This document shows, piece after piece, positions 4,879 to 31,680 of a stretch of 32,000 bases of DNA (its first letter is position 1; the number at the start of each line of letters is the position of its first letter). Source of the stretch: Acaryochloris marina MBIC11017 (GTDB lineage Bacteria > Cyanobacteriota > Cyanobacteriia > Thermosynechococcales > Thermosynechococcaceae); contig NC_009925.1 of assembly GCF_000018105.1 (NCBI RefSeq), forward strand, positions 180,001 to 212,000, read 5' to 3'. The translations under genes were made by a program, and so were the position numbers. The notes under the pieces are model-generated. The model did no database searches. It was not told the DNA's origin and saw nothing but the letters and a program-made list of their open reading frames with translations.

Positions 4879-5556
4879 GAGAGGAAAGCTATTGTTGTTG
4901 GAAAGAGTTGAGTTGGATTTGAATGCATTGTCCTTAGAATGCCCATATGAATGGAAAATCTAAAGAATATAAAAATAGTTAATAAGTAATATTACTAATG
5001 TTTACTATTAATTAATCCGTAATTCAATTATGGCAAATATTTAGAATAGACGTCGTTTCTTTCGATACAAAATAGAGAATTAAACCTATAGATTATGTGC
5101 CTATTGATTGGAACTAATCTCGTTGATTGCCATCAGTAAATGTGCGTAATTCTTACTAATTGAGAGAAAATATATTGAAAGTTGACATTTGTTATACAAC
5201 GAATACAACAAAGAAGACTCAACCTGAATCTCTTAGAACGCATGATAGCTACTGCAAGTCTTTCTAACACGGCCTAATATAGCTCTGTTTAGCAGTGCTT
5301 GACTGAAAATTGGGTCTTGAGCTGCTCTGCTTAGGTACAGTTTGGGGGCAATCCCGTTGAATTTTTTTTCACCAGATCGCAACTAACGTTGCTGAACAAT
5401 TTATTCTAGGCTGATGATACCCCCAACCAGTGCTGAAAAATAGTCGGATAATCGGCCTTGGAACGCAGCGAGCTCAACGATGGCCATTGCACCCAATACT
5501 CAAACTATTTTGGTTTGCCCAATAGGAAAAATAGTTATGAACATAGATATCCAGCT

Positions 5557-5997: not shown

Positions 5998-6726
5998 TTA
6001 GAACGCCATTTCTATTTTCTTAAAGTCCAGCTCAATTTCAGCCCAAAGAGCCTTATTGTGAGGATCCGTATTCAATGCCTTCTTAAGATAAGCTCTAGCC
6101 TGATTGAGTTTTCGTTCCCGGATGAGCTGCCGTCCCCAGGATTGGTAAATAATAGCCTGCCATTGTCTCACTTCCGCATCCTGGGGGAGACGTTGGGCCA
6201 GGGCTTCAATAAGGGCAACGGCTCTGGGAAATCTCTGGCGCTGAATTAATTCTTGAAGTTGCTTATAAGAATCCACCTTCAGCTTGATGTCTGCGGGTGA
6301 AAGGGAGGATTTTCTAGTGGAAGTGGCAGGCTTGGGTTGGGGGGTGGGCTGTTTAGAAACCGTTGCTCGTGGCCTGGATGTCGCAGCTTGAGGTCGAGCC
6401 TGACGTTGAGGCTGTTGTGGAGGCGGGGGCGAAGAAGGTTTTGTCGACTGGGTCGAGACCTTGACTGAGGGGGCAGAACGGGGCTTTGCTGTTGCTCTGG
6501 ATGGAACAGATGCAGGAACTGTGCTGTTATTCGGGGCAGGAGGGACAATTTTTTGCAGCGTTTTGTAAGCCTCAGTAACCTGAATAAATTTCTCATGGGC
6601 GAGTTGATCGCCCGGATTGGTATCCGGGTGCCATTGCCTTGCTAGTCGACGATATGAGGCTTTGAGGTCTTCTATATTGGCTCTAGAAGTCAGTTGTAGC
6701 AGGCGATAGCAGTCTGCGATATCCAT
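5998..6726 (-). CDS. DnaJ (J-domain) protein with Pro/Ser/Thr-rich linker and TPR-like C-terminus
   Basis: N-terminal J domain (YRRLARQWHPDTNPGD...KFIQVTEAYKTL, containing HPD). This is followed by a low-complexity P/S/T/Q linker, then helical repeats resembling TPR (ARAYLKKALNTDPHNKALW). Confidence 0.85.
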   Translation of the reverse strand: MDIADCYRLLQLTSRANIEDLKASYRRLARQWHPDTNPGDQLAHEKFIQVTEAYKTLQKIVPPAPNNSTVPASVPSRATAKPRSAPSVKVSTQSTKPSSPPPPQQPQRQARPQAATSRPRATVSKQPTPQPKPATSTRKSSLSPADIKLKVDSYKQLQELIQRQRFPRAVALIEALAQRLPQDAEVRQWQAIIYQSWGRQLIRERKLNQARAYLKKALNTDPHNKALWAEIELDFKKIEMAF

Positions 6727-19931: not shown

Positions 19932-20834
19932 TTAGGTCATGTGTGCATCAAACCATGCCACAAGCTGTTCGGGATGCTCTGAAAAATAGGCATACCCTCG
20001 AAAACGCTCTGCAGTCTCTTCCACCCAAATGATTTTTTTGTCTGGGTTGGGCAAGGCATCATAGAATCCTTGGATAGCCTCAGCCTGCATTGACGCATCG
20101 TTTCTGACCTGCAGCACTAAAGTTGGGATCTTGATGGCTGACACCTGCTTCATAGCGTTATAGTCATCGAGCCGGAAACCATAGATTTTCCGTTGCTGTT
20201 GGTCATAGAGTTCAGCGCCCTCTATAGGGTCAATGCCCATGCTCTGGCAAGATTTTTCAATCATGGCTCGACCCAAGACGGGCTGGAGGGCTGTCATGGA
20301 AATAATGTGTTCAAACTCTTCGGGATGCTTGGCCATGGCGATCAAGGTGGAATTACACCCTAGGCACATCGTATGCAGAGAGGTCTTCAAATCGCGAGTC
20401 TCTAGACGGCTCTTGGCGTACCGCACGGCACCAATGATATCGCGCCATTCTAGCTGACTAAAACCGTTGGCTCCCGAAGATGCACTCAAGCCATGGTCGC
20501 GAATGTCATAGGCAATGATGTTATAGCCAGCCTCATGCAGAGCTTGGTAGGCGGGCAAGAAGTTCACTTCAAAGCCGCCACGGAAGCTAAATTCTTCCAG
20601 GTGACCGGCAAAGCCATAGCGATTACCTGGCCCGAAGTGGTTGCAAATGATTAAGCGATCCGAGTCTGCGGGGATAAACCATCCCTCTAACCGAGTGCCG
20701 TCAATGGCGTTAAAGAAAATGTCCTCATACACCATGCCATACTCATTCGGGCGTCGATAGACGGGGGTCCGAGTAGGCTTTGCCATCGCTTGGGCCATGG
20801 CGTTTACGGCTTGGATCATCTGTGCTTGTTCCAT
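19932..20834 (-). CDS. alpha/beta-fold hydrolase-like protein, paralog 1 (Cys at nucleophile elbow)
   Basis: 300 aa. Motifs are NHFGPGN, YDIRDHGLS and the elbow TMCLG. It is paralogous to 21259-22194 and 22391-23266. Confidence 0.85.
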   Translation of the reverse strand: MEQAQMIQAVNAMAQAMAKPTRTPVYRRPNEYGMVYEDIFFNAIDGTRLEGWFIPADSDRLIICNHFGPGNRYGFAGHLEEFSFRGGFEVNFLPAYQALHEAGYNIIAYDIRDHGLSASSGANGFSQLEWRDIIGAVRYAKSRLETRDLKTSLHTMCLGCNSTLIAMAKHPEEFEHIISMTALQPVLGRAMIEKSCQSMGIDPIEGAELYDQQQRKIYGFRLDDYNAMKQVSAIKIPTLVLQVRNDASMQAEAIQGFYDALPNPDKKIIWVEETAERFRGYAYFSEHPEQLVAWFDAHMT

Positions 20835-21010
20835 GTCACTCAGTTTCTTGTTGTATTGAACGTTTCTCTATTTGGTTGAACGATTGTCAGCATTCTCCTT
20901 GGGCAAGGCTGAGGTTGCTGGTCACATTAGAGGTACTGATCAAACCAGTTCACAAATGCTTCAGGCGACCGTCCCAGATAGTTGTAGCCTGCAAACCGGC
21001 TGGCTTCTAA
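20740..21010. repeat. direct repeat copy A (~270 bp): hydrolase-1 5' end + intergenic + hydrolase-3-like 3' end
   Basis: Aligns by eye with 22224-22474 at roughly nine of ten positions, with one ~20-bp indel. The plus-strand track ORFs 20780-21010 and 22264-22593 both begin MPSLGPWRLRLG. Confidence 0.85.
20927..21010 (-). pseudogene. 3' fragment (27 codons + stop) of a hydrolase-3-like gene
   Basis: The minus strand reads LEASRFAGYNYLGRSPEAFVNWFDQYL-stop. The end of the intact gene at 22391 reads LEASRFAGYDYLGRSPEAFVGWFDQYL-stop. A stop codon lies a few codons upstream of the fragment. Confidence 0.75.
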
Positions 21011-21258
21011 TCGGAGAGTGTCAGTTATGGATTAACCAAACTCTCTAAAATTGTGAATACTATGTCTTTTAGGACTTCAGAGTTCCTGTGCGCTCATTAT
21101 TAAGTCCGACGACATTGCTTGTAGCGGAATATTACATAGCCGAGGTTAGTTTTACCCTGTAGAAAAGAGACTCGGCTTGAGTGGCAGTGAGGACAATCCA
21201 TTAAAAGCGGACAGAGTATAAGGGTAAGAAATCAGCCTGCCAGACTGGCGGTAATCCC

Positions 21259-22194
21259 TCAATTTTGGCTACTCGGGACTGACGATTTCAACTTGGGAGC
21301 CGCTAGATATTTATTAAACCAACTTAATATCGGTTCAGAGTTCTCTCCTATCCAGTTGTAACAAGCCATACGATTCTGGAGCGCATTTTTCATTTTAGGC
21401 AAGTCTAACAACAGAATCTCTTTTTCAACGTTTAATTCCTCGTATAACTCATTAAGGAATTCTTCATTGAGATAGCTATCATTCATATTCTGGATGATTA
21501 ACGTCGGCACTGTAATATCCTTTACAAAAGGTCGCCAAGTTAGTTCGTTAAAATCCTCTCCAGTTTGTTTTTTGATAGATTTTGTTGTGCTATCGACCAA
21601 AAAGTTTGGTAAACCCATCGCATTAACAAAACATGTATAATCCATCGGCTGGACTGAAATCATACACTTAATATTTTCATACTGTTTTAGCCCGTTTTCC
21701 ATACCAAAGGCTGCTACACTCGCCCCTTGTCCCATGCATATGCTCAGCAAACCGATTTCAGCATCCTTGTATGTGCCATGATTAGTCATAAAATCAACCG
21801 CAGCTAGCACATCTTTAGCTTCTTCTTTTCCCCAGCTGATATAGGGCAATGTGCCAAGAGAACTCTTTCCGTGATTACGCATATCGTACATAAGCACGGA
21901 ATAGCCTGCTTCATTTAAGTACTTCGCCTGACGAAGAAAGCGAACATCTTCGTCCCAACCTTTAATAAAACCTTTGCCTTCTCTGGTATAGCCTGAGCGA
22001 GAGCATTGCACACCAAAGTGAGACTGAATAATGACTTTATTGGTACTGCCTTTGATCAACCAACCTGAGAGCTCAACACCATCTTTAGCGCTGAAAGTCA
22101 CAGCTTCATAATCGAGGCCGTAGTTTTTGGGGTCATCAAACACTGGAGATTGGTAGGGTTTAATAAATGTATTGGCAATCATCTTTCCCAGCAT
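21259..22194 (-). CDS. alpha/beta-fold hydrolase-like protein, paralog 2 (Cys at nucleophile elbow; AT-rich)
   Basis: Motifs are SHFGVQC, YDMRNHGKS and the elbow SICMG. I prefer the start at 22194 (MLGKMIANTFIKPYQSP, with AGGAG 8 nt upstream) because it aligns with the paralog-3 N-terminus. The track ORF extends to 22230. Confidence 0.85.
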   Translation of the reverse strand: MLGKMIANTFIKPYQSPVFDDPKNYGLDYEAVTFSAKDGVELSGWLIKGSTNKVIIQSHFGVQCSRSGYTREGKGFIKGWDEDVRFLRQAKYLNEAGYSVLMYDMRNHGKSSLGTLPYISWGKEEAKDVLAAVDFMTNHGTYKDAEIGLLSICMGQGASVAAFGMENGLKQYENIKCMISVQPMDYTCFVNAMGLPNFLVDSTTKSIKKQTGEDFNELTWRPFVKDITVPTLIIQNMNDSYLNEEFLNELYEELNVEKEILLLDLPKMKNALQNRMACYNWIGENSEPILSWFNKYLAAPKLKSSVPSSQN

Positions 22195-22222
22195 TGGTCT
22201 TGCTCCTGATCTGTAAATTAAA

Positions 22223-22318
22223 CTACTCATTCGGGCGTTGATAGACGGGGGACTGAGTGGGCTTTGCCATCGCTTGGGCCATGGCGTTTACGGCTTGGAA
22301 CATCTGTTCTTTTTCCAT
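22223..22318 (-). pseudogene. 5' fragment (31 codons) of a hydrolase-1-like gene
   Basis: The minus strand reads MEKEQMFQAVNAMAQAMAKPTQSPVYQRPNE-stop. The hydrolase-1 N-terminus reads MEQAQMIQAVNAMAQAMAKPTRTPVYRRPNEYG. The fragment ends exactly where repeat homology ends. Confidence 0.75.
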
Positions 22319-22474
22319 GCCACTCAGTCTCTTGTTGTGTTGAACGGGTGTTAGCATTCCCCTTGGGCAAGGCTGAGGTTGCTGGTCGTATTAGAGGTAC
22401 TGATCAAACCAGCCCACAAATGCTTCTGGAGACCGTCCCAGATAGTCGTAGCCCGCAAACCGGCTGGCTTCTAA
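22224..22474. repeat. direct repeat copy B (~250 bp): hydrolase-1-like 5' fragment + intergenic + hydrolase-3 3' end
   Basis: Partner of 20740-21010, same orientation. The two copies bracket 21011-22223. Confidence 0.85.
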
Positions 22475-23266
22475 GTCCAGCATCCGCAGATCTTTTTCCA
22501 CGGTCAGGGCATCGTAGTAGGACTGCACCATGTCCAGATTGGTCCAGGGATCGTTCTGGTTCTGAAGGACCAATGTGGGGACTGAAATTTTAGGGGCATC
22601 GTTGATAAAGTTGGGCTCAGCCATATTGAAGCCGAGGCGATCGCGAGAGACCTTGGCCCCGGCGCGCTCCATAAATCCAGGCATGCCCAGTGCTTTGACG
22701 AAGTAGCTGTAAAGCAGGGGCTGCACGTTAACCAGCGCCTTTACCTTGTCACGACTGGCTAACCCATCTGCTAAGCCGTAGGCATAGGTGGTGGAAGCAG
22801 CCCCCATGCAGATACTAAGCAGCCCCACACTGGCATTGGCAAACTCAGGTCGAGCCGAAACAAAGTCTACTGCTGCCACGACATCCTTAGCTTCTTCAGG
22901 CCCCCAGCTCACCCACGGAATCGTACCTAGGTCGCTTTCTCCATGCCCCCGCAGGTCATACATCAATACGGAATAGCCCTGCTCAGCAAGGTATTTGGCC
23001 TGGCGTAAAAACTTGATGTCTTCTTTCCAGGGTGCGATCGGCCCTCTGCCTTTGGGAGACCAGCCACCACGGTTGCATTGCACACCAAAATGGCTCTGCA
23101 CAATCACGCGGTCTGTGCCTCCTTTGATCAACCAGCCCCGCAGGGTTACACCGTCACGCGCTTTGAACTCCACATTTTCGTAGTTGAGTCCATAGTCTGT
23201 AGGACTGTCAAACAACGGTGACTGGGATGGCTTGACCATCATATTGGAAACCATATTGCCAAACAT
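22391..23266 (-). CDS. alpha/beta-fold hydrolase-like protein, paralog 3 (Cys at nucleophile elbow)
   Basis: 291 aa. Motifs are SHFGVQC, YDLRGHGES and the elbow SICMG. GAGG lies 6 nt upstream of the ATG. Confidence 0.85.
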   Translation of the reverse strand: MFGNMVSNMMVKPSQSPLFDSPTDYGLNYENVEFKARDGVTLRGWLIKGGTDRVIVQSHFGVQCNRGGWSPKGRGPIAPWKEDIKFLRQAKYLAEQGYSVLMYDLRGHGESDLGTIPWVSWGPEEAKDVVAAVDFVSARPEFANASVGLLSICMGAASTTYAYGLADGLASRDKVKALVNVQPLLYSYFVKALGMPGFMERAGAKVSRDRLGFNMAEPNFINDAPKISVPTLVLQNQNDPWTNLDMVQSYYDALTVEKDLRMLDLEASRFAGYDYLGRSPEAFVGWFDQYL

Positions 23267-23330
23267 ATCTGACCTCTTGATGAGCGTGATGACGTTGAAT
23301 CGTGTGATGACTGTGTTGGCGGGTGACTTA

Positions 23331-24176
23331 TTACACTGGCGGCATTAGTAATGGGGTAACTTGGTCGATAAAGGCCTGGCGAGAGTCAGCTTTAGCGATC
23401 ATCCCTGCTAGCATTTCTGCATCAGAACCGACCGGGTTGTTGATGGGGGTGTCTTGGGTCGCACATTCAAAAATTTTGTCGGCTACTTCTTGAGGATCAG
23501 CAACTTGGCCACCCTGGTTGGCCATCTTCTGAGCGACGTCTTGCAAGTGAGTATGCAACTTCTCAGCATGAGCCACTAGTTCGGCATCTCCAGCTTTAAG
23601 GATGTCGCTGGTATTGGCATTAAACCGGGTCGTCGGATAGGCCCCAGGTAGAACACTTTTTACTCGAATGTTAAATGGCTTGTAATCAAAGGCCATACCT
23701 TCCGTGAGGCCCTGAACAGCATGCTTGGTTGAGGCGTAAATTGAGATGGTGGGTGCGGCGAGCATACCTGCCATGGACGTTACGTTAATGATGCAGCCTG
23801 ATTTTTGTTGACGCATAAACGGCAAAACGGCACGGGACACATTCATGACGCCAAAGACGTTGGTTTCAAACATTGCCCGAATGTTTTCGTCTGTTGCTTG
23901 CTCAAACAGGGAGTGGCCACCGTAGCCTGCGTTATTAACCAGCACATCAATGGTGCCAAAGGTGGTGATTGTCAATTTAACCGCGACTTCAATACTGGCT
24001 GGTTCAGTTACATCGAGTCGGGTTACAACTACATTTTCAAGTTGTGTGAGGTCCGTTTCGCGCTCCGGAGAACGCATTGTAGCCACCACATTCCAGCCAG
24101 ATTGCTGAAACTTCAGGGCGGCCAGTTTACCAAATCCTGAACTTGCCCCTGTGATTAGGACCGTTTTCTGATTCAT
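23331..24176 (-). CDS. short-chain dehydrogenase/reductase (classical SDR)
   Basis: Motifs TGASSGFG (cofactor), NNAG and the YASTK catalytic YxxxK. 281 aa. Confidence 0.9.
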   Translation of the reverse strand: MNQKTVLITGASSGFGKLAALKFQQSGWNVVATMRSPERETDLTQLENVVVTRLDVTEPASIEVAVKLTITTFGTIDVLVNNAGYGGHSLFEQATDENIRAMFETNVFGVMNVSRAVLPFMRQQKSGCIINVTSMAGMLAAPTISIYASTKHAVQGLTEGMAFDYKPFNIRVKSVLPGAYPTTRFNANTSDILKAGDAELVAHAEKLHTHLQDVAQKMANQGGQVADPQEVADKIFECATQDTPINNPVGSDAEMLAGMIAKADSRQAFIDQVTPLLMPPV

Positions 24177-24238
24177 GAGTTTGACTCCTGATTGTGGTGA
24201 TTGAGGGTTGATATTGAACGGCTTTGCTATCGGGTAAA

Positions 24239-24895
24239 TTATTCGTTATTGATTGCGATCGCCCCATGAATTAACGCGGATAGTCCATACGTCATCGTCG
24301 ATTCAAATTCCCAGGGGGGCTGATTGACTTCTGGATGCCGCAGCGCTTCCAGCAAATTTTCACTGGGATTAGAGAGGGGCCAAAGGCCAGCAATCATTGA
24401 GTAGGTGCATTGAATCACCATGATCCACTGCTGCTGATTGAGGCGGGGGAACACCGATACCAAACTCTCTAATAGTTCTTGGTAGGTGGTATAACCTTGT
24501 TTTTTGAATTTAATCAGTTGCTCAACGGAGGAATTACGCTCCATGGAGATTGAAAGTTGGGGAATCAGATTGAGTAATGTTTCATGTTGCAGCAGTGTTT
24601 CGACCCAAACCTGAGTCATTTCCGATACGTTATCCACCGATGCCATTTGCTGAAGTCGGTTTATTAATGCGCGCACAAATACAATTTGTTCTGCTTCGTA
24701 AATGACTAAGAAAATCTCCTCTCGGGTCGAGAAGTAGCGATAAATATTGGCTTTGCTAATTCCTGCCTCACGGGCAATCCCGTTGAGGCTAATTTCTTCA
24801 TATGCCAACTCAGAGAAGAGAGACTGAGCTGCTTCAAGAATTTCTTCTCGCCTAGCAGCTTTTTGGCTTTGACTCCGTGCTCTTGCCCAACTCAT
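24239..24895 (-). CDS. TetR/AcrR family transcriptional regulator
   Basis: N-terminal TetR HTH (ILEAAQSLFSELAYEEISLNGIAREAGISKANIYRYFSTREEIF). 218 aa with a helical ligand-binding C-terminus. Confidence 0.9.
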   Translation of the reverse strand: MSWARARSQSQKAARREEILEAAQSLFSELAYEEISLNGIAREAGISKANIYRYFSTREEIFLVIYEAEQIVFVRALINRLQQMASVDNVSEMTQVWVETLLQHETLLNLIPQLSISMERNSSVEQLIKFKKQGYTTYQELLESLVSVFPRLNQQQWIMVIQCTYSMIAGLWPLSNPSENLLEALRHPEVNQPPWEFESTMTYGLSALIHGAIAINNE

Positions 24896-25327: not shown

Positions 25328-26068
25328 TTAGTGTGAATTGTCAAAGTATGAATCATTAAAGTCTAAATCCAACGCCTTTAAGACTAAGCTCGCCGTTAGG
25401 AAAGCAGAATTGCTTTGCTGGCCAGTAATCAAGTTGCTGTCTTGAATTACAAATGGTGTGAAGGCAGAACTCGCCACAAATTTTGCACCGCGCTTTTTGG
25501 CCTCCTCTTCTACAACAAAAGGAACCATCATCGGGCCAAAGTTTTTACTCATCCACTGCTCTTCTTTCTTAGAGAATCCAGTGATCATTTTGCCTTGAAT
25601 CAACGGTTCGCCATTATCCAAGGTGGCATTCAGGAGTAAGCAAGCGCCTCGACAGAGGGTTGCACTCGGTTTCTCGTCTTGGTAAAAGCTGACAAATAAA
25701 TCGGTCAAAGCCTTGTCTTTTGGGAAAGTATAGAGGGTTCCCTGACCACCACAAACAAAGATTGCATCATAGTCCTGTGTATTGAGATTTGAGATCGCAG
25801 GGGTATTCGATAACTGATCGGTAAACGCCGCTTGGGTAATATATCGAGCAGAGAGGATATCCAGCGACAAGAACCCAGACGGATCACGAGGTTCACTCTG
25901 TGCATCAAGTTCAATCGGGCCACCCTGGGAACTTGCGATGGTCACCTGGCAGCCAGAGGCTTTGAGCACAGCGTAAGGATGGATCAGTTCAACAGCACAG
26001 ATCCCCACGGGTTTGCCGATGTTGCTGGTAGCAGAGTTGGAAACGATCATTAAGATGTGCTTTGACAT
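25328..26068 (-). CDS. DJ-1/PfpI family (class I glutamine amidotransferase-like) protein, full length
   Basis: 246 aa. Motifs are ILMIVSN, DAIFVCGGQG, a candidate nucleophile elbow ATLCRGACLL, and C-terminal NLITGQQSNS. Confidence 0.85.
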   Translation of the reverse strand: MSKHILMIVSNSATSNIGKPVGICAVELIHPYAVLKASGCQVTIASSQGGPIELDAQSEPRDPSGFLSLDILSARYITQAAFTDQLSNTPAISNLNTQDYDAIFVCGGQGTLYTFPKDKALTDLFVSFYQDEKPSATLCRGACLLLNATLDNGEPLIQGKMITGFSKKEEQWMSKNFGPMMVPFVVEEEAKKRGAKFVASSAFTPFVIQDSNLITGQQSNSAFLTASLVLKALDLDFNDSYFDNSH

Positions 26069-27064
26069 TTTGAAGATTGATGGGTACTGGGTTGATGAGG
26101 TATTTCTGAGCAGAGGTCAAATTGCTATTTCAGCCATGTTTTTGAGTTAGCTTATGTTTTGACTAATCAAACTGAACATTTTTATTTGCAGATAATTTTA
26201 ATATGGCTATTTTGCATCTACAGCCACAACTATCTACTGGTTATTTCTTTGAGGTAAAAAGGATAATCTTCAGGTATCATCCACCTGGATATCCACCAGC
26301 ATCATTGGCTGTTTTAGCTAGACTATTCCCCACTCACGAGTGCGATAACTGCTCCCTATATCTAAAAATTTATAAAGAAGGAATAGGGTAGGGCATTAAG
26401 GGCATTAGCGATAAGTAGAGTTTGGGTTTTTTGGAGGAGAATAAAGGGATTAACCTCTGTTTCAAATCACGAAAAATTCTTATCAATTATCTGTCAATTA
26501 TGGATTAGATAGTTGCTAAGATGATTGAAATAATTTCCTTTTTAAATAAGCGAATATTTGCACCGTTATACATCTTTTTGATGATGCTTATTTTGTTGTT
26601 ATTAACCTAAGAAGGGTTAAGCTTAGTCGTCAATATTCAGAAGCAACACAACGTCAACCGTATCACTCCAACCTTCCAGATTTAGCGAGAAAGTTAGCAC
26701 TTGCTCAGATCCGTCCTTGTGGAGAAAGTGGCTCTTCGCAGATATTTTCTCAGTAAGAATAAAGAAGTTCTCCAACAATATCGAGACGGGCGATCTGCCT
26801 TTAACACCAGCCTAGATCGTTTGTCCTATCTCCTCAAAAATGTCAGAACTCAGCATCCTAGTTCACTATTCTCAATAGTCAATACTATTGAATGAAATAC
26901 TCCTGATTTTTAATCGAGAAATCAACTATTTCAAGGCTTGAGTTTTTACTAGAATTCTCAACTAAAATATTGGACACTGAATTCTGAAACTTTCCAAAAT
27001 GCTCCAAGTTTTTGTATAGAGAACATTCCAAAAAAGAATTTAAAAATTGACAAGATTACTAACG

Positions 27065-27346
27065 TCAAACCTGGTGGTGGAACTCTACATAAAACTCGAC
27101 TGACCCTATCGGCTCAACCTTATGGGAAATTTTAGGTTCGATGATACCAGGGAGTTCCGAGCTGATCACATGTTCCTCAGGGGGATTCGTGAGAATTTGA
27201 TATCGCAGTTGGCCAGATATGACACAAAGCTTACCCCAACTTCCTTCTCTAGTGGTATGGGAATGGAGTAGTGCGTTTGGAATTGTATCTTGTGTAAAGA
27301 CCGAGGTTTGACGGTAAGCTGTAACATTCTTGGGGAGTATTTTCAT
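27065..27346 (-). CDS. DUF1971 domain protein (YeaR / TehB-associated domain-like)
   Basis: 93 aa. The segment HSHTTREGSWGKLCVISGQLRYQIL...IIEPKISHKVEPIGSVEFYVEFH matches the DUF1971 pattern (H-x-T-x3-G-x-WG-x-L-x-V-x-G-x-L-x-Y ... P-x3-H-x-V ... F-x-V-x-F). Confidence 0.8.
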   Translation of the reverse strand: MKILPKNVTAYRQTSVFTQDTIPNALLHSHTTREGSWGKLCVISGQLRYQILTNPPEEHVISSELPGIIEPKISHKVEPIGSVEFYVEFHHQV

Positions 27347-27394
27347 GATAGTTTTCCGAGGATTGAAGCTTGCTGAAAGAACGTCTTGATCAAC

Positions 27395-27550
27395 CTACCT
27401 ATAAGGGATCTCATGCTCATCTTGTGGTTTAGAAATGGTAGTCCAGCAGTGACGGCAAAACCAATGAGGACCCTCATGACTCACCTGTTGAACCATTGTA
27501 TGGGAGCAGTAAGGGCATGTCGGTGTTGAGCAGTAAGGACAAGATTGCAT
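27395..27550 (-). CDS. small Cys-rich zinc-ribbon-like protein (51 aa)
   Basis: Not in the ORF track. Sequence is MQSCPYCSTPTCPYCSHTMVQQVSHEGPHWFCRHCWTTISKPQDEHEIPYR, with CPYC, CPYC and CRHC pairs. GGAGG lies 8 nt upstream of the ATG. It sits between the SDR and DUF1971 genes on the same strand. Confidence 0.5.
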   Translation of the reverse strand: MQSCPYCSTPTCPYCSHTMVQQVSHEGPHWFCRHCWTTISKPQDEHEIPYR

Positions 27551-27613
27551 CGTATCAACCTCCGATGAGAATCAATTAAGGAAATTATTCTGGTCTTGGG
27601 ATCTTTGACTGGC

Positions 27614-28453
27614 TTAGGAAGGACCTGCATTACAGCAGTCTTTAAATTCAAATTCAGTTTGCCGAGTAGATTGCCGATGGCCCAGCCTGGCCGACAGTTG
27701 CATCGCCCGCTCTACAAACCCAGGTGCAATGTAGCTAGCGAAGATGGCTATCTTAGATTGCCAGCCCACCCAAATCTCTTTCTTGCCAGAGCGCAAGCCT
27801 TTTACAAAGGCTTTGGCGACATCACTAGGCGAACTAGCAATCACCCAGGCAAATTTATCCGTATTTTGAACCATATCCGTTTCGGTTAGGGTCGGCAATA
27901 AGGCAACGACCTGAACGTTATAACTAGCTAACTCCATACGAAGAGATTGAGTCATTCCCAACAAAGCAAATTTGGTCGCTGAGTAGGTGGAGTAGGTGGG
28001 GGCAGCAAGTTTCCCCATTAAGCTTGAGACATTGACAATAGTTCCAGCCCGATGCTTTACCATATGCTGAGCTATCAGTCTGGTAATCGCAAAGGTCCCA
28101 CACAGATTTAAACGAATCTCAGCTTCAAATTCTTCAATGGTGGAGCTGAGAAAACTGGCCTGATGTGCCACCCCTGCATTGTTCACTAGCAGATCAATCG
28201 GACCAAAATCGGACAGTGCTTGGGGAATGAATTGCTTAATCTGTCCTGTTTGAGTCAAATCTAGTGAGATCACAACCACATCAACTTCAGGGGCCAATTG
28301 GTGTATCTCTCTAGTTAAGTGCTTTAAACAACATTGCTGACGGGCAATGAGTATCAGACGAGCGATACCCTGCTGGGCAAGTTCAAGAGCGATCGCTTTG
28401 CCTATACCTCGTGATGCTCCTGTAATCAAGGCGGTCTTGTTTTTGAGTCTCAT
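27614..28453 (-). CDS. short-chain dehydrogenase/reductase (classical SDR)
   Basis: Motifs TGASRGIG, NNAG and YSATK (YxxxK). 279 aa. Confidence 0.9.
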   Translation of the reverse strand: MRLKNKTALITGASRGIGKAIALELAQQGIARLILIARQQCCLKHLTREIHQLAPEVDVVVISLDLTQTGQIKQFIPQALSDFGPIDLLVNNAGVAHQASFLSSTIEEFEAEIRLNLCGTFAITRLIAQHMVKHRAGTIVNVSSLMGKLAAPTYSTYSATKFALLGMTQSLRMELASYNVQVVALLPTLTETDMVQNTDKFAWVIASSPSDVAKAFVKGLRSGKKEIWVGWQSKIAIFASYIAPGFVERAMQLSARLGHRQSTRQTEFEFKDCCNAGPS

Positions 28454-28706
28454 TCTTAGCTTCTCCCAGCTCGATTAGGTATCGGTCATCTTCAAAACCA
28501 ATGTTGCTGTGTAGGGTGAGTGAATTCCAAACTGTAACGGCCACTAGGTAAACGATATGGGTTACCAAACTATTAGTAATGATGAGTGTCTAACAGGGTG
28601 AACATCCAAACGGATGAAGACTAACAGCGAAAATGTGTCCTACTGTTTTCTTGAAGTCTTTTGCTGTTCCGTACATACTCAATATGCTGAATCTTCATCT
28701 ACATGT

Positions 28707-28724
28707 CTTTGAGGTAGCTCAAAG
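28707..28724. promoter_or_regulatory. FNR-spaced palindrome CTTTGAG-GTAG-CTCAAAG (candidate Crp/Fnr box 1)
   Basis: Perfect 7-bp arms with a 4-bp spacer. It lies 15 bp upstream of the Crp/Fnr regulator ATG and 254 bp upstream of the divergent SDR start. The 12-bp core TGAGGTAGCTCA is shared with 29445-29460. Confidence 0.55.
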
Positions 28725-28738
28725 AGCAGCCCTTTTAT

Positions 28739-29440
28739 ATGAAAGCCACTGTTGAACAACTTGCAGGACTCTCTCTTTTTGCAGAACTGCGTCCCCAAGA
28801 TTTAGAAACGCTGCAACCCCATACTCAGATTCGAACCTACCGAAAAGAAGAGATTCTTATTCATGAGGGAGATCTGATTCCTGAAAAACTGCATGTGTTG
28901 TTCAAAGGGGTACTGCAAGTCGTTAAAAGTTCAGCAACGGGGAAGGAGACGATTTTGCGGCGGCTGAGGGCAGGTGATATCTTTGCTGCTCCAGCTCTGT
29001 TTGGAGACGCATTAGCTCCAGCAACGGTCTTGGCAATTGAGGATTGCCAGGTATTAACCATTGATAGAGCAGACCTTTTGAGGGCGATTCAAGAAGCTCC
29101 AGAACTGGCGCTGAGCATCTTGGTGGTCTTTAACCAGCGGCTCCAGCAGTTGCATAAGATGGTGCATGGGTTGGTTTCAGAGCGAGCAGTGGTGCGTTTG
29201 GCTCAGCTCATCCAATATTCAGCTCTACAGCATGGAACTAAGGTGACGGAGGCAGGTGAGCAGCTTCAGATCAAGTTGCCCTACTACCAAATGGCACGGA
29301 GCATCGGGATTACTTATGAAGAATGTGCTCGCTTAATGAAAGGACTCCATGCAGTAGTGGCCTATCAAAGGGGTGGCAAAATTGTCATTCTTGATCCGGA
29401 GGAATTGACAGCCATCGCTGAAGGGCAAAAAGAAATTTAG
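28739..29440 (+). CDS. Crp/Fnr family transcriptional regulator (no N-terminal Cys cluster)
   Basis: 233 aa. It has a cNMP-binding-like beta-roll (LFAEL...IHEGD...GKETILRRLRAGDIFA), a dimerisation helix, and a C-terminal HTH (YQMARSIGITYEECARLMKGL) with an FNR-like E-x2-A-R recognition helix. Confidence 0.9.
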   Translation: MKATVEQLAGLSLFAELRPQDLETLQPHTQIRTYRKEEILIHEGDLIPEKLHVLFKGVLQVVKSSATGKETILRRLRAGDIFAAPALFGDALAPATVLAIEDCQVLTIDRADLLRAIQEAPELALSILVVFNQRLQQLHKMVHGLVSERAVVRLAQLIQYSALQHGTKVTEAGEQLQIKLPYYQMARSIGITYEECARLMKGLHAVVAYQRGGKIVILDPEELTAIAEGQKEI

Positions 29441-29444
29441 CTTG

Positions 29445-29460
29445 TATGAGGTAGCTCATA
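29445..29460. promoter_or_regulatory. FNR-spaced palindrome TATGAG-GTAG-CTCATA (candidate Crp/Fnr box 2)
   Basis: Perfect 6-bp arms with a 4-bp spacer. It lies between the regulator stop (29440) and the globin ATG (29523). The core is identical to box 1. Confidence 0.55.
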
Positions 29461-29522
29461 GTTGTTCGTAGGCAATCTTGGCAGACTTAAACCTGTTCAA
29501 GTTACCGAGACGAAAATGAACT

Positions 29523-29969
29523 ATGGCGCTACAAACAGAACTTCTGACAAATAGCTTTGACCTGCTTCGAGAGAATGAAGCAGAATTCACCCAAGTGTTT
29601 TACGGCACATTATTTACGGACTACCCACAGGTGAAACCGCTGTTCTCCAACACTCATATGGATGAACAGGCCAAGAAATTATTTGCTTCTCTACTATTAG
29701 TGGTAAACAACCTGACAAAGCCCGATGCGCTTTCCTCAGCTCTGAAAGGTTTAGGCACTCGACATGTGAAGTATGGCGTTCTACCCGAACATTACCCCCT
29801 GGTTGGTAGCACCCTCCTCAAATCAATGGCAGCGACTCTCAAAGATCAGTGGACTCCAGATATTGAGGCAGCCTGGACTGATGCCTATGGGGCGATCACT
29901 GAAATCATGCTGGAGGGGACGGATTACCCCGAAGAAGTATTGATCTCTGAAAGTATGTCAGCAACTTAA
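29523..29969 (+). CDS. single-domain 3-on-3 bacterial hemoglobin (Vitreoscilla Hb / flavohemoglobin globin-domain-like)
   Basis: 148 aa. Markers are FTQVFYGTLFTDYPQVKPLF (Tyr B10), DEQAKKL (Gln E7), LGTRHVKYGV (proximal His F8) and EHYPLVGSTLL. Confidence 0.85.
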   Translation: MALQTELLTNSFDLLRENEAEFTQVFYGTLFTDYPQVKPLFSNTHMDEQAKKLFASLLLVVNNLTKPDALSSALKGLGTRHVKYGVLPEHYPLVGSTLLKSMAATLKDQWTPDIEAAWTDAYGAITEIMLEGTDYPEEVLISESMSAT

Positions 29970-29976
29970 AAGAACT

Positions 29977-31164
29977 ATGAATCAGCGCTTTCAATCGCAA
30001 CCCTATAAGAGTCTTTGCTTAGCAACAATTGCCTTTGCGATCTCATTTGCCAGTTGGGGGGTGATCGCTGGGGTTGCTCCCTTACTGAAACAAGAATTAG
30101 GACTCTCGGCTACTCAAGTTAGCCTCATGGTCGCTATCCCGGTTCTACTGGCGGCCTTGGGTCGGATCCCCTTAGGCATCCTCACAAATCGGTTTGGGGG
30201 GCGTTTGGTCTTTAGCCTATTATTGATTCTCGGGATTATTCCTCCTGTCGCTTTGGCGCTGAATCACTCTTACCTCAGCCTCCTATTCTAGGGACTCTGG
30301 CTAGGTTTAGCAGGGAGTTCCTTTACCGTTGGCATTGCCTTTGTATCCACTTGGTTCCCTACACGAGCACAAGGGACCGCTCTAGGCATCTATGGTTTGG
30401 GAAATATTGGGCAATCGATTGCTTTGATTGGGGGACCATTGTTAGCCCATCGCTTTGGAATTGCGGCTCCGTTTCTCTTATTTGGTCTAGCGTCCCTCAC
30501 TTGGGGGATTGTTTTCGCTATTTTTGCGCGGAACGCAAGAGGGAAAAGGGTGCCCAAGACTATTGGGCAGAATTTCAAGTTCCTCCGTCGAACAAAGCTG
30601 GCCTGGGTACTCAGCCTGTTCTATTCACTGACTTTTGGTGGGTTTGTGACTCTCAGCATCTATTTGCCCACGATTTATCAAGAGACCTTTTCAATCAATT
30701 CAACTACTGCAGGGGCACTCACGGCTACCTTTGTGATCGTCGCGACGGCTTGTCGGCCTTTTGGAGGATGGGTGAGTGATCGCATAGGCGGCAGAAAACT
30801 CTTATTAATTGTCTTGTTAGGGGTCTTCCTCATTGGATGGACTTTGGCTATCCAATCAATGCTCCTCTTTACTCTAGGTAGCATTGGGAGTGCGGTTCTT
30901 CTAGGACTAGGCAATGGAGGAGTCTTCAAACTTGTTCCCGAATATTTTCCTAAACAGACTGGCACCGTCACAGGCTTAGTGGGAGCAGCAGGAGGGCTGG
31001 GCGGTTTCTTTCCACCCATCTTTCTAGGAGTGATGAAAGATATGATGGGCAGCTATACATTCGGTTTTTTAGCTTTAAGTCTATTTGGCCTTATTTGTGC
31101 TGGAGTATTATGCATCACTTTCTTAGAAGTAAATCCCCCCAATTCGACTGTCCCTTCTCGATAG
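29977..31164 (+). pseudogene. narK: NarK/NasA-family MFS nitrate/nitrite transporter interrupted by one in-frame TAG (30289-30291)
   Basis: Track ORFs 29977-30291 and 30397-31164 are in the same frame. Translation straight through the TAG is continuous: ...NHSYLSLLF-stop-GLWLGLAGSSFTVGIAFVSTWFPTRAQGTALGIYGLGNIGQS.... Nitrate-signature-like motifs GLAGSSF and LGLGNGGVFKLVP are present. The result would be ~395 aa with 12 TM-like segments. Confidence 0.8.
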
Positions 31165-31293
31165 TGTTATTGATGAACTCGTGGTTGCGCTGGAGAATAG
31201 CGAACCCCAAAACAGATTTGGCATGTCAGTATCAGTTACTTCAGACTTATGATTGTTTCCAATCTTTGAGCTGGGTTTTAATTGCAAGTATGT

Positions 31294-31680
31294 TTAGTTA
31301 TGTCCTTTTTGGGCCGCTGCATCGATGCTGATTGATCCAGCCCCAGTGTAAATCACCATCAGGAGTCCCCCGATTAAACCCACATTTTTCAAGAAGGCAT
31401 TGACTTGGCTTGGATCGCCAATGAAATTATGAAATACCAGCGTGGCTGGAATCAGAAACAGAATCAGCAATAGTGCACCAAGTTTAACTTTATAGCCCAT
31501 GACCAGAGATAAGCCTCCCACAAGTTGAAAAACAATGGTGCCAATAGCGAGTGCTGGGGCCAAGGGGAGAGTTTTACCAATCATCTCAACGAAACCAGAA
31601 AATCCCAGTAGATGGTCAATTCCAGCCTTGAAAAAGATAAGGGACAAACAGATGCGAGCTGCCAAGGGTATGTATGTCAT
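31294..31680 (-). CDS. DoxX family membrane protein
   Basis: 128 aa with four hydrophobic helices. The N-terminal LAARICLSLIFFKAGIDHL and the FQLVGGLSLVMG pattern are typical of DoxX. Confidence 0.8.
   Translation of the reverse strand: MTYIPLAARICLSLIFFKAGIDHLLGFSGFVEMIGKTLPLAPALAIGTIVFQLVGGLSLVMGYKVKLGALLLILFLIPATLVFHNFIGDPSQVNAFLKNVGLIGGLLMVIYTGAGSISIDAAAQKGHN

Follow-up and report, generated by a model that had tools for sequence, protein, structure and literature searches.

What does the gene cluster around a single-domain globin in the cyanobacterium Acaryochloris marina MBIC11017 do, and how much of it works together? The cluster occupies positions 27,065 to 31,680 of a 32,000-nucleotide stretch of contig NC_009925.1 (positions 180,001 to 212,000, forward strand), and this whole stretch is called the window here. 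An earlier note, made from the letters of the DNA, had read seven genes at this place as a self-contained regulon coupling nitrite/nitrate transport to nitric oxide (NO) detoxification. The listing of open reading frames (ORFs) and the Pfam and NCBIfam profile searches confirmed all seven genes at their positions. The comparison with other genomes points to a smaller functional unit, composed of a Crp/Fnr-family regulator gene (crp), its operator, the globin gene and a decayed narK-type gene. We consider it reasonably probable that this unit, and not the whole seven-gene stretch, regulates as a nitrosative-stress circuit. Its elements are as follows.

28739-29440, plus strand: crp, a Crp/Fnr-family regulator of 233 amino acids (aa), with PF00027 (cNMP_binding) and PF13545 (HTH_Crp_2).
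28710-28721, no strand: a further TGAGGTAGCTCA copy, located 29 nt before the crp ATG, a predicted autoregulatory site.
29445-29461, no strand: globin operator TATGAGGTAGCTCATAG (core 29447-29458), a Crp site predicted from motif and conservation.
29482-29487, plus strand: -10-like hexamer CAGACT with TTGG before it, the transcription start being predicted near 29494.
29523-29969, plus strand: single-domain 3/3 globin of 148 aa, PF00042.
29977-31164, plus strand: NarK/NNP-family MFS transporter gene, interrupted, with TIGR00886 as best match.
30289-30291, plus strand: in-frame TAG at narK codon 105 (TGG to TAG), where orthologues have Trp.

The conservation of the neighbourhood was followed in 80 loci with globin orthologues (47-73% identity), taken from species-representative genomes, nearly all cyanobacterial, and queried with all proteins of the window. 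A Crp orthologue (49-73% identity) adjoined the globin in 19 of the 80 loci, in convergent, divergent or co-directional orientation. The identity range was 49-82% when the closest relative, L082 (loci are written as L with a number), was included. A NarK-type gene followed the globin in two of the 80 loci (L006 and L011, 64-65% identity), and narK was located directly downstream of the globin in L085 and L086 as well. The close relatives, whose globins were 80-83% identical, retained the order crp-glb-narK with changed flanks. The flanks in L082 consist of GRAM and Rce1-like genes upstream and, downstream, a Na+/H+ exchanger gene. Conservation beyond chance is limited to the crp-globin(-narK) part. 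As judged from these gene orders, crp and the globin gene form the conserved unit, and narK joins them only in close relatives.

A predicted operator ties the regulator to the globin. The window holds two copies of the 12-mer TGAGGTAGCTCA, one at 29447-29458, 76 nt before the globin ATG, and the other at 28710-28721, 29 nt before that of crp. With the pattern TGAG-nTAn-CTCA, the box was located 68-87 nt ahead of the globin start codon in 33 of the 80 loci, mostly at 70-76 nt. Every locus with an adjacent Crp had the box (19/19), and an adjacent Crp was present in none of the box-less loci (0/47; Fisher p = 7e-10). Strict matches elsewhere in the 1.06 Mb of these loci numbered three; two of these preceded ORF160, a family of 160-aa proteins that matched nothing in Pfam. 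The canonical FNR box (TTGAT-N4-ATCAA, up to two mismatches) gave 30 matches against 26.6 expected, an uninformative difference, and one of these led to the real motif. No earlier description of the box or the regulon was found in the searchable literature, most subscription papers being beyond reach.

The alignment of 34 promoters on the box gave the consensus TATGAG[C/G]TAGCTCATAG. An element TTGnCAnACT proved to be conserved as well, at offsets 31-40 counted from the start of the box. The distance from the box centre to the centre of the -10-like hexamer was 32 bp in these promoters. At a class II Crp/FNR promoter the activator site is centred at -41.5 and the -10 hexamer spans -12 to -7. 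The 32-bp spacing is therefore that of a class II Crp/FNR activator, and the position of CAGACT (29482-29487) therefore predicts a transcription start near 29494. The earlier note had linked a Crp/Fnr regulator without the FNR cysteine cluster to a Tyr-B10/Gln-E7 globin, and this link was supported by the conserved adjacency, the palindromic operator and the class II geometry.

Could the palindrome be bound by another factor, or be a non-regulatory element, with the adjacency of Crp a coincidence? Fourteen box-positive loci have no Crp gene in the fetched flank, as this explanation would allow. A boxed globin without adjacent crp was seen in L004 (Leptolyngbya sp. PCC 7375). The 8.16-Mb scaffold that carries this globin encodes the Crp orthologue (70% identity) at another place, and the regulator would thus be able to act in trans. 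The perfect association of Crp with the box (19/19 versus 0/47), the fit of a Crp-type dyad with class II spacing, the presence of crp on the PCC 7375 scaffold and the position of crp inside the boxed operons of L131 and L202 all speak against a coincidence, which we regard as very improbable.

A variant of the second box, TTTGAGGTCACTCAAAG, occupies the same crp-proximal position in L082, where the upstream genes differ. The site is too near the start codon of crp to activate this gene in class II fashion, and it probably serves autoregulation of crp, most likely by repression.

Profile searches placed the regulator in the Crp/Fnr superfamily, with 73.1 bits for PF00027 and 30.7 bits for PF13545, both over the cut-off. 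The protein stayed under every NCBIfam cut-off (59 bits against the 266-bit cut-off of CRP). More than 1100 homologues were found, and the source names shown among the 120 listed were all generic (Crp/Fnr family or cAMP-binding). FNR proper carries three N-terminal and one central Fe-S cysteines, and the A. marina protein lacks this set. Its only cysteines are C103 and C196, none of them N-terminal; C103 is not conserved, and C196, in the recognition helix, is Ser in two orthologues. The description of the regulator as Cys-less in the earlier note was correct for the FNR-type N-terminal cluster and incorrect for the protein as a whole. The protein does not qualify as a CRP-type cAMP receptor either. 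The cAMP contacts E72, R82, S83, T127 and S128 of CRP correspond to A/A, P, A, L and H139 in the alignment and are not conserved.

Two regions of the regulator are invariant among 67 homologues. The first is the recognition helix Y193-E194-E195-C196-x-R198, of which Y193-E194-E195-x-x-R198 does not vary; E194 and R198 align with E181 and R185 of CRP. This invariant helix matches the invariant operator, and we infer that Crp binds the box and activates the globin promoter. The second is the pair H139 and H143. H139 aligns with S128 of CRP, a C-helix residue reaching the effector pocket, and the two histidines possibly face that pocket and take part in sensing. A ligand or haem held there is a reasonable guess and no more than that. 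The haem idea is speculative, and a literature search on DNR haem ligands found nothing.

The globin scored 73.1 bits against PF00042 and had 517 homologues, mostly cyanobacterial. Tyr27 (B10), Gln49 (E7) and His81 (F8) are invariant in 26 orthologues and aligned to their equivalents in 3s1i, which bears out the Tyr-B10/Gln-E7 pair read earlier. The fold and these three residues identify a bacterial 3/3 single-domain globin of the flavohaemoglobin lineage. It is not a flavohaemoglobin, as its 148 aa lack the C-terminal FAD/NAD(P)H reductase module. The protein covers only positions 8-135 of the 399 of the Hmp model and reaches 91 bits against a 432-bit cut-off. The best structural matches were 3wfw (E = 1.9e-22) and 3s1i (1.1e-21), then Vgb 1vhb (7.7e-19); 2wy4 matched as well. 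The term Vgb-like is appropriate at the lineage level, and it does not hold for the closest structures, which are 3wfw and 3s1i rather than 1vhb.

The box-less globin orthologues (L032-L076) have neighbours of another kind. A MarR-family protein (e.g. L049:8448-9125, plus strand) with a C-terminal Cys/His-rich tail (CVTCRFF...HHCDF) follows the globin in 17 loci, which suggests that the regulator of the same globin has been replaced there. In the box-less clade (L031-L048), a secreted 265-aa protein with no Pfam match precedes the globin in 12 loci (e.g. L033:7190-7987, plus strand). An 86-aa protein, again with no Pfam match, follows it in 9 loci (e.g. L037:8753-9013, plus strand), and 6 loci have MOSC/YiiM genes close by. 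In L056, L062, L066, L075, L077, L078 and L080, two or three globin paralogues stand in tandem. L078 and L080 come from Bacteroidetes and KSB1 metagenome-assembled genomes (MAGs), with many response-regulator genes near the globin arrays.

The third gene of the unit belongs to the NarK-type transporters. Its product reached 231.2 bits with TIGR00886, under the 311.7-bit cut-off, yet this was by far the best NCBIfam family, and the best PDB matches were E. coli NarK and NarU. The substrate-site arginines R63 (TM2) and R260 (TM8) are present and align to E. coli NarK 4jr9, as do the nitrate-signature motifs GLGNIG (140-145, TM5) and GAAGGLGGFF (336-345, TM11). The gene starts 7 nt past the globin stop. 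The narK gene is predicted to share a transcript with the globin in Acaryochloris and its clade, and also in two marine cyanobacteria outside it, which supports the link drawn in the earlier note.

The transporter family named in that note was right. The intact reading frame expected of an NNP-family member is missing in A. marina, where the TAG at 30289-30291 splits narK into ORFs of 104 and 255 aa. Codon 105 encodes Trp in all four intact orthologues (L085, L086, L006 and L011), in the context LLFWGLWLG. A sequencing or assembly error was considered and rejected, as the read-based independent assembly SRR29694079 (L001) has the same sequence, with 100% identity over 5383 bp and the TAG present. 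The narK of A. marina is probably a pseudogene that arose by a TGG-to-TAG nonsense change, and a laboratory-strain mutation is possible. L085 retains an intact narK of 393 aa. The narK of L082/L083 has an internal deletion that fuses residues 1-75 to 265-388. These two different lesions indicate that narK was inactivated at least twice independently. With the gene decayed in A. marina and deleted in a relative, a coupling of transport to detoxification is therefore impossible in the A. marina strain, and this part of the earlier proposal was not borne out. The recurrent loss of the linked gene means that the transporter is dispensable in some lineages.

Another anion-transporter gene is found at a related locus. 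In a Phormidesmis MAG, a SLAC1/TehA-family anion-channel gene (L071:5943-7106, plus strand) adjoins crp downstream of a box at 5347. This gene is split by an in-frame TGA (6513-6515), and it is the second disrupted anion-transporter gene linked to the circuit.

Does the rest of the cluster belong to the same regulon? The remaining features are the divergent three-gene unit, a third box-like site and the convergent DoxX gene.

27065-27346, minus strand: DUF1971 (YeaR / TehB N-terminal-like) protein, PF09313 with 86.7 bits against a 23.1-bit cut-off.
27395-27550, minus strand: 51-aa six-Cys zinc-ribbon ORF, CPYC...WFCRHCW, of a small-protein family recognized by profile search.
27463-27476, no strand: imperfect box ATGAGGACCCTCAT within the zinc-ribbon ORF, half-sites perfect, centre GACC.
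27614-28453, minus strand: SDR oxidoreductase, PF00106, first gene of the divergent three-gene unit.
31294-31680, minus strand: DoxX membrane protein, PF07681, convergent with narK.

The families that the earlier note had given to the globin, the DUF1971 protein and the MFS protein were those recovered by the profile searches (PF00042, PF09313 and, as best match, TIGR00886). Its regulon of all seven genes, which would couple nitrite/nitrate transport to NO detoxification, draws on the layout. The two divergent units are tightly packed and have a common 285-bp intergenic region with a box. The minus-strand hexamer CATATT (28686-28681) stands in class II register to this crp-proximal box, which possibly also serves the SDR / zinc-ribbon / DUF1971 unit, with a predicted minus-strand transcription start near 28674. 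L082 retains a similar minus-strand hexamer, with no convincing divergent gene behind it. Comparative work on proteobacteria also fits such a regulon, since a tehB homologue and narK-like genes are accessory targets in NsrR regulons (PMC1274295).

In E. coli, yeaR is under the control of an NO or nitrate regulator. The DUF1971 gene of A. marina has no canonical box and one box candidate, the third site 119 nt upstream of its ATG. Both half-sites are perfect there, and a -10-like TACCAT is one nt off register. The central TA, invariant in all 41 other sites, is replaced in its GACC centre, and the site may be a weak internal DUF1971 promoter or a chance match. The best structural matches of the DUF1971 protein were 3m70 and 3dl3. 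Its three homologues from a word-indexed search were all in unrelated contexts. A DUF1971 gene was present in one of the 80 loci (L014), 2.9 kb off and with unrelated genes between. The SDR had generic matches of about 30% identity at other loci, and DoxX was absent from all related loci, a Na+/H+ exchanger taking its position in relatives. Neither SDR, DUF1971 nor DoxX showed a conserved linkage to globin, crp or box in the 80 genome loci and about 40 metagenome loci. Together with the different flanks of L082, the probable pseudogene narK and the missing central TA of the third box, this makes a regulon of all seven genes rather unlikely, and the self-contained conserved module of the earlier note did not stand.

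The zinc-ribbon ORF is the member of the divergent unit with a connection elsewhere. An exhaustive profile search assigned it to a small-protein family with the motif CPYCS-x(n)-WFCRHCW. In the 1.87 Mb of fetched DNA, a sample biased to these loci, all seven other occurrences of the family lay directly downstream of ORF160. In 6 of the 7 adjacent pairs of ORF160 and a methyltransferase gene, the zinc-ribbon ORF sat between the two. The family recurs within box operons of other genomes, and the choice of this ORF as a partner in the earlier note was supported to that extent.

Elsewhere in the window, about 1 kb of AT-rich DNA (26100-27060, GC 0.36) separates a DJ-1/PfpI gene (25328-26068) from DUF1971, with no convincing ORF and no Rfam match. 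The DJ-1/PfpI gene comes after a minus-strand run (19932-24895) that comprises three paralogous alpha/beta-hydrolase genes (Hydrolase_4), a TetR regulator (TetR_C_34) and another SDR, which shares 35% identity with the first one. No RNA family was recognized when the entire window was compared with Rfam, and the generic sigma-70 and terminator scan of the DNA gave no excess over shuffled controls.

Which other genes carry the operator? Metagenome contigs were scanned for the box with a minimal -10-like A and T, and at least 120 loci matched. About two thirds of 120 matches were discarded as coincidental, recurring sequences of unrelated low-GC or high-GC organisms. The first gene behind the box was a globin of the window type in at least 8 loci and a truly Vgb-like globin in at least 7 (1vhb, E = 7e-40). 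It was a 260-aa S-adenosylmethionine (SAM) methyltransferase in at least about 11 loci, ORF160 in at least 7, and U165, a 165-aa unknown protein convergent with crp, in at least 5. A group-I-type truncated globin (trHb, PF01152) and RIC/YtfE, a di-iron Fe-S repair protein (TIGR03652, 252.7 bits against a cut-off of 204.7), were also boxed. The crp gene was often adjacent to the boxed genes. The order in L131 is box-trHb-RIC-crp, convergent with box-methyltransferase, and in L202 it is box-RIC-crp. The window itself encodes none of the other target families in its 32 kb.

Two further candidates were seen beside these targets. In Nostoc and Phormidesmis (L022, L028, L071, L079; e.g. L071:9988-10308, plus strand), the operons with the order glb-ORF160-zinc-ribbon-methyltransferase continue behind the methyltransferase with a Cupin_2 protein of 106 aa, which may be a further regulon member. 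A boxed protein of 130-151 aa with no Pfam match was present in two metagenome loci (L100:4011-4530 and L187:1452-1842) and is a candidate target.

The boxed globins and RIC/YtfE give the circuit the appearance of a nitrosative-stress regulon, as NO-responsive regulons of other phyla have a similar content; those of NsrR, DNR, HcpR and NorR have dnrN (RIC) and hmp at their core (PMC1274295). From this regulon content we infer that the circuit responds to NO. A Crp dimer would bind ATGAG-sTAG-CTCAT, a 5-4-5 palindrome whose centre lies about 41.5 bp before the point where globin transcription starts, and activate the weak extended -10 promoter (TTGnCAnACT) in class II fashion. One transcript is predicted to span the globin and the downstream narK-type gene. 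Through the box 29 nt upstream of its start codon, Crp would control its own synthesis, most likely by repression, and expression of the divergent SDR / zinc-ribbon / DUF1971 unit may start from this box too. The most likely activity of the globin is the dioxygenation of NO to nitrate, for which it would need a separate reductase. Nitrate or nitrite would have left the cell through the NarK-type carrier before its TGG-to-TAG inactivation in A. marina. Across cyanobacteria, the same operator would govern the Vgb-like globin, the truncated globin, RIC/YtfE, the SAM methyltransferase, ORF160, the CPYC zinc-ribbon protein and the 165-aa protein as a nitrosative-stress regulon.

Is NO the signal? 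The main rival is that oxygen, hypoxia or general redox/oxidative stress drives the circuit, the globin buffering or delivering O2 or acting as a peroxidase. Such a role has been proposed for the FNR-controlled Vgb, which belongs to the lineage of the window globin. The box has the layout of an FNR box (5-4-5 with a TGA core), RIC repairs oxidative damage too, and none of the metagenome loci listed had an NO-specific enzyme (NorB, Hcp or NirK, for example) behind the box. Set against this are a Crp without the Fe-S cysteines of FNR, a set of three globin classes plus RIC that is typical of NO regulons, and a linkage to narK that points to nitrogen oxyanions. We consider an oxygen or redox signal unlikely on balance.

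Several observations weigh against a nitrosative-stress circuit. Oxidative stress is another signal to which RIC and globins respond, and O2 controls vgb. A reductase partner of the globin is missing from the cluster. DNR (3dkw, E = 8.8e-7) matched the regulator more weakly than CRP did (6.4e-13), and this comparison does not place the regulator in a known NO-sensor clade. The narK gene is dead in A. marina, and any transport coupling is inoperative there. The target frequencies in the metagenomes are biased, as the scan required the -10-like A and T and counted the matches listed only; among the matches listed, RIC occurred in two loci and the truncated globin in one.

A bolder interpretation goes beyond the circuit itself. 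The regulator could represent a distinct Crp/Fnr subfamily and a cyanobacterial NO sensor, with sensing at H139/H143, perhaps via haem. It would have the new operator ATGAG-sTAG-CTCAT and a regulon of three globin classes, RIC, ORF160, the CPYC four-Cys mini-protein and the SAM methyltransferase. We hold this to be a tentative possibility. If it is true, ORF160, the four-Cys protein and the methyltransferase might form a new NO-damage pathway, and the four-Cys protein might be the missing redox partner of the reductase-less globins.

The sensing and disposal of NO are poorly defined in cyanobacteria. These bacteria meet NO from their own nitrite reduction, from NO synthase (NOS) and from neighbours in mats and ascidian hosts. 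The analysis provides a concrete predicted pair of regulator and operator, for which a transcription start is predicted as well. A widespread, unstudied cyanobacterial 3/3 globin is placed in a regulatory context, and the target families, several without known function, recur across dozens of cyanobacterial genera.

We compared the circuit with the closest known systems. The window globin shares the fold family and the Tyr-B10/Gln-E7/His-F8 triad with Vgb, Cgb and the flavohaemoglobin domain. It differs in that 3wfw and 3s1i match it better than Vgb, Cgb and the flavohaemoglobins do, and in lacking the reductase domain of the last; it is only 26% identical to the truly Vgb-like boxed globin of other cyanobacteria. 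The A. marina narK product resembles NarK/NarU as its best PDB and NCBIfam match, with both arginines and both nitrate-signature motifs. It differs from them by its short length (395 aa), its score under the TIGR00886 cut-off and its nonsense codon, and the gene of a relative is internally deleted.

Among regulatory systems, the NssR-Cgb/Ctb system of Campylobacter jejuni is comparable, since it combines a Crp/Fnr activator without an Fe-S cluster, a Tyr-B10/Gln-E7 globin, a truncated globin and an FNR-like 5-4-5 palindrome (PMC4601167, PMC1274295). Activation by NssR extends to both globin genes, the single-domain cgb and the truncated ctb (PMC4601167), and the A. marina box type likewise precedes single-domain and truncated globins. 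The NssR box is TTAAC-N4-GTTAA, whereas the cyanobacterial box is ATGAG-sTAG-CTCAT with a conserved centre. The cyanobacterial system belongs to another phylum, its regulator often adjoins the target, and its regulon adds RIC, the methyltransferase, ORF160 and the zinc-ribbon protein. DNR/NnrR and HcpR are also Crp/Fnr members without the FNR cysteines, and they control NO-detoxification genes such as dnrN (RIC) and hmp (PMC1274295). Unlike DNR and HcpR, the cyanobacterial regulator has no nor, nir or hcp targets among the boxed genes, and DNR is a weak match to the A. marina Crp (E = 8.8e-7, below CRP). An HcpR-like slr0449-norB pair with the box TTGACnnnnGTCAA was predicted in Synechocystis (PMC1274295), and this box, TTGACnnnnGTCAA, is unlike ATGAG-sTAG-CTCAT. 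The operator differs from the published NssR, FNR, CRP and HcpR motifs. By analogy, the circuit may work like the NssR-Cgb/Ctb or DNR/HcpR regulons, which it resembles in its predicted Crp/Fnr activator, its FNR-like dyad and its predicted globin and RIC targets. With an operator that many cyanobacteria also have before other haemoglobins and an iron-sulfur repair gene, it looks like a nitric-oxide stress circuit undescribed in the searchable literature.

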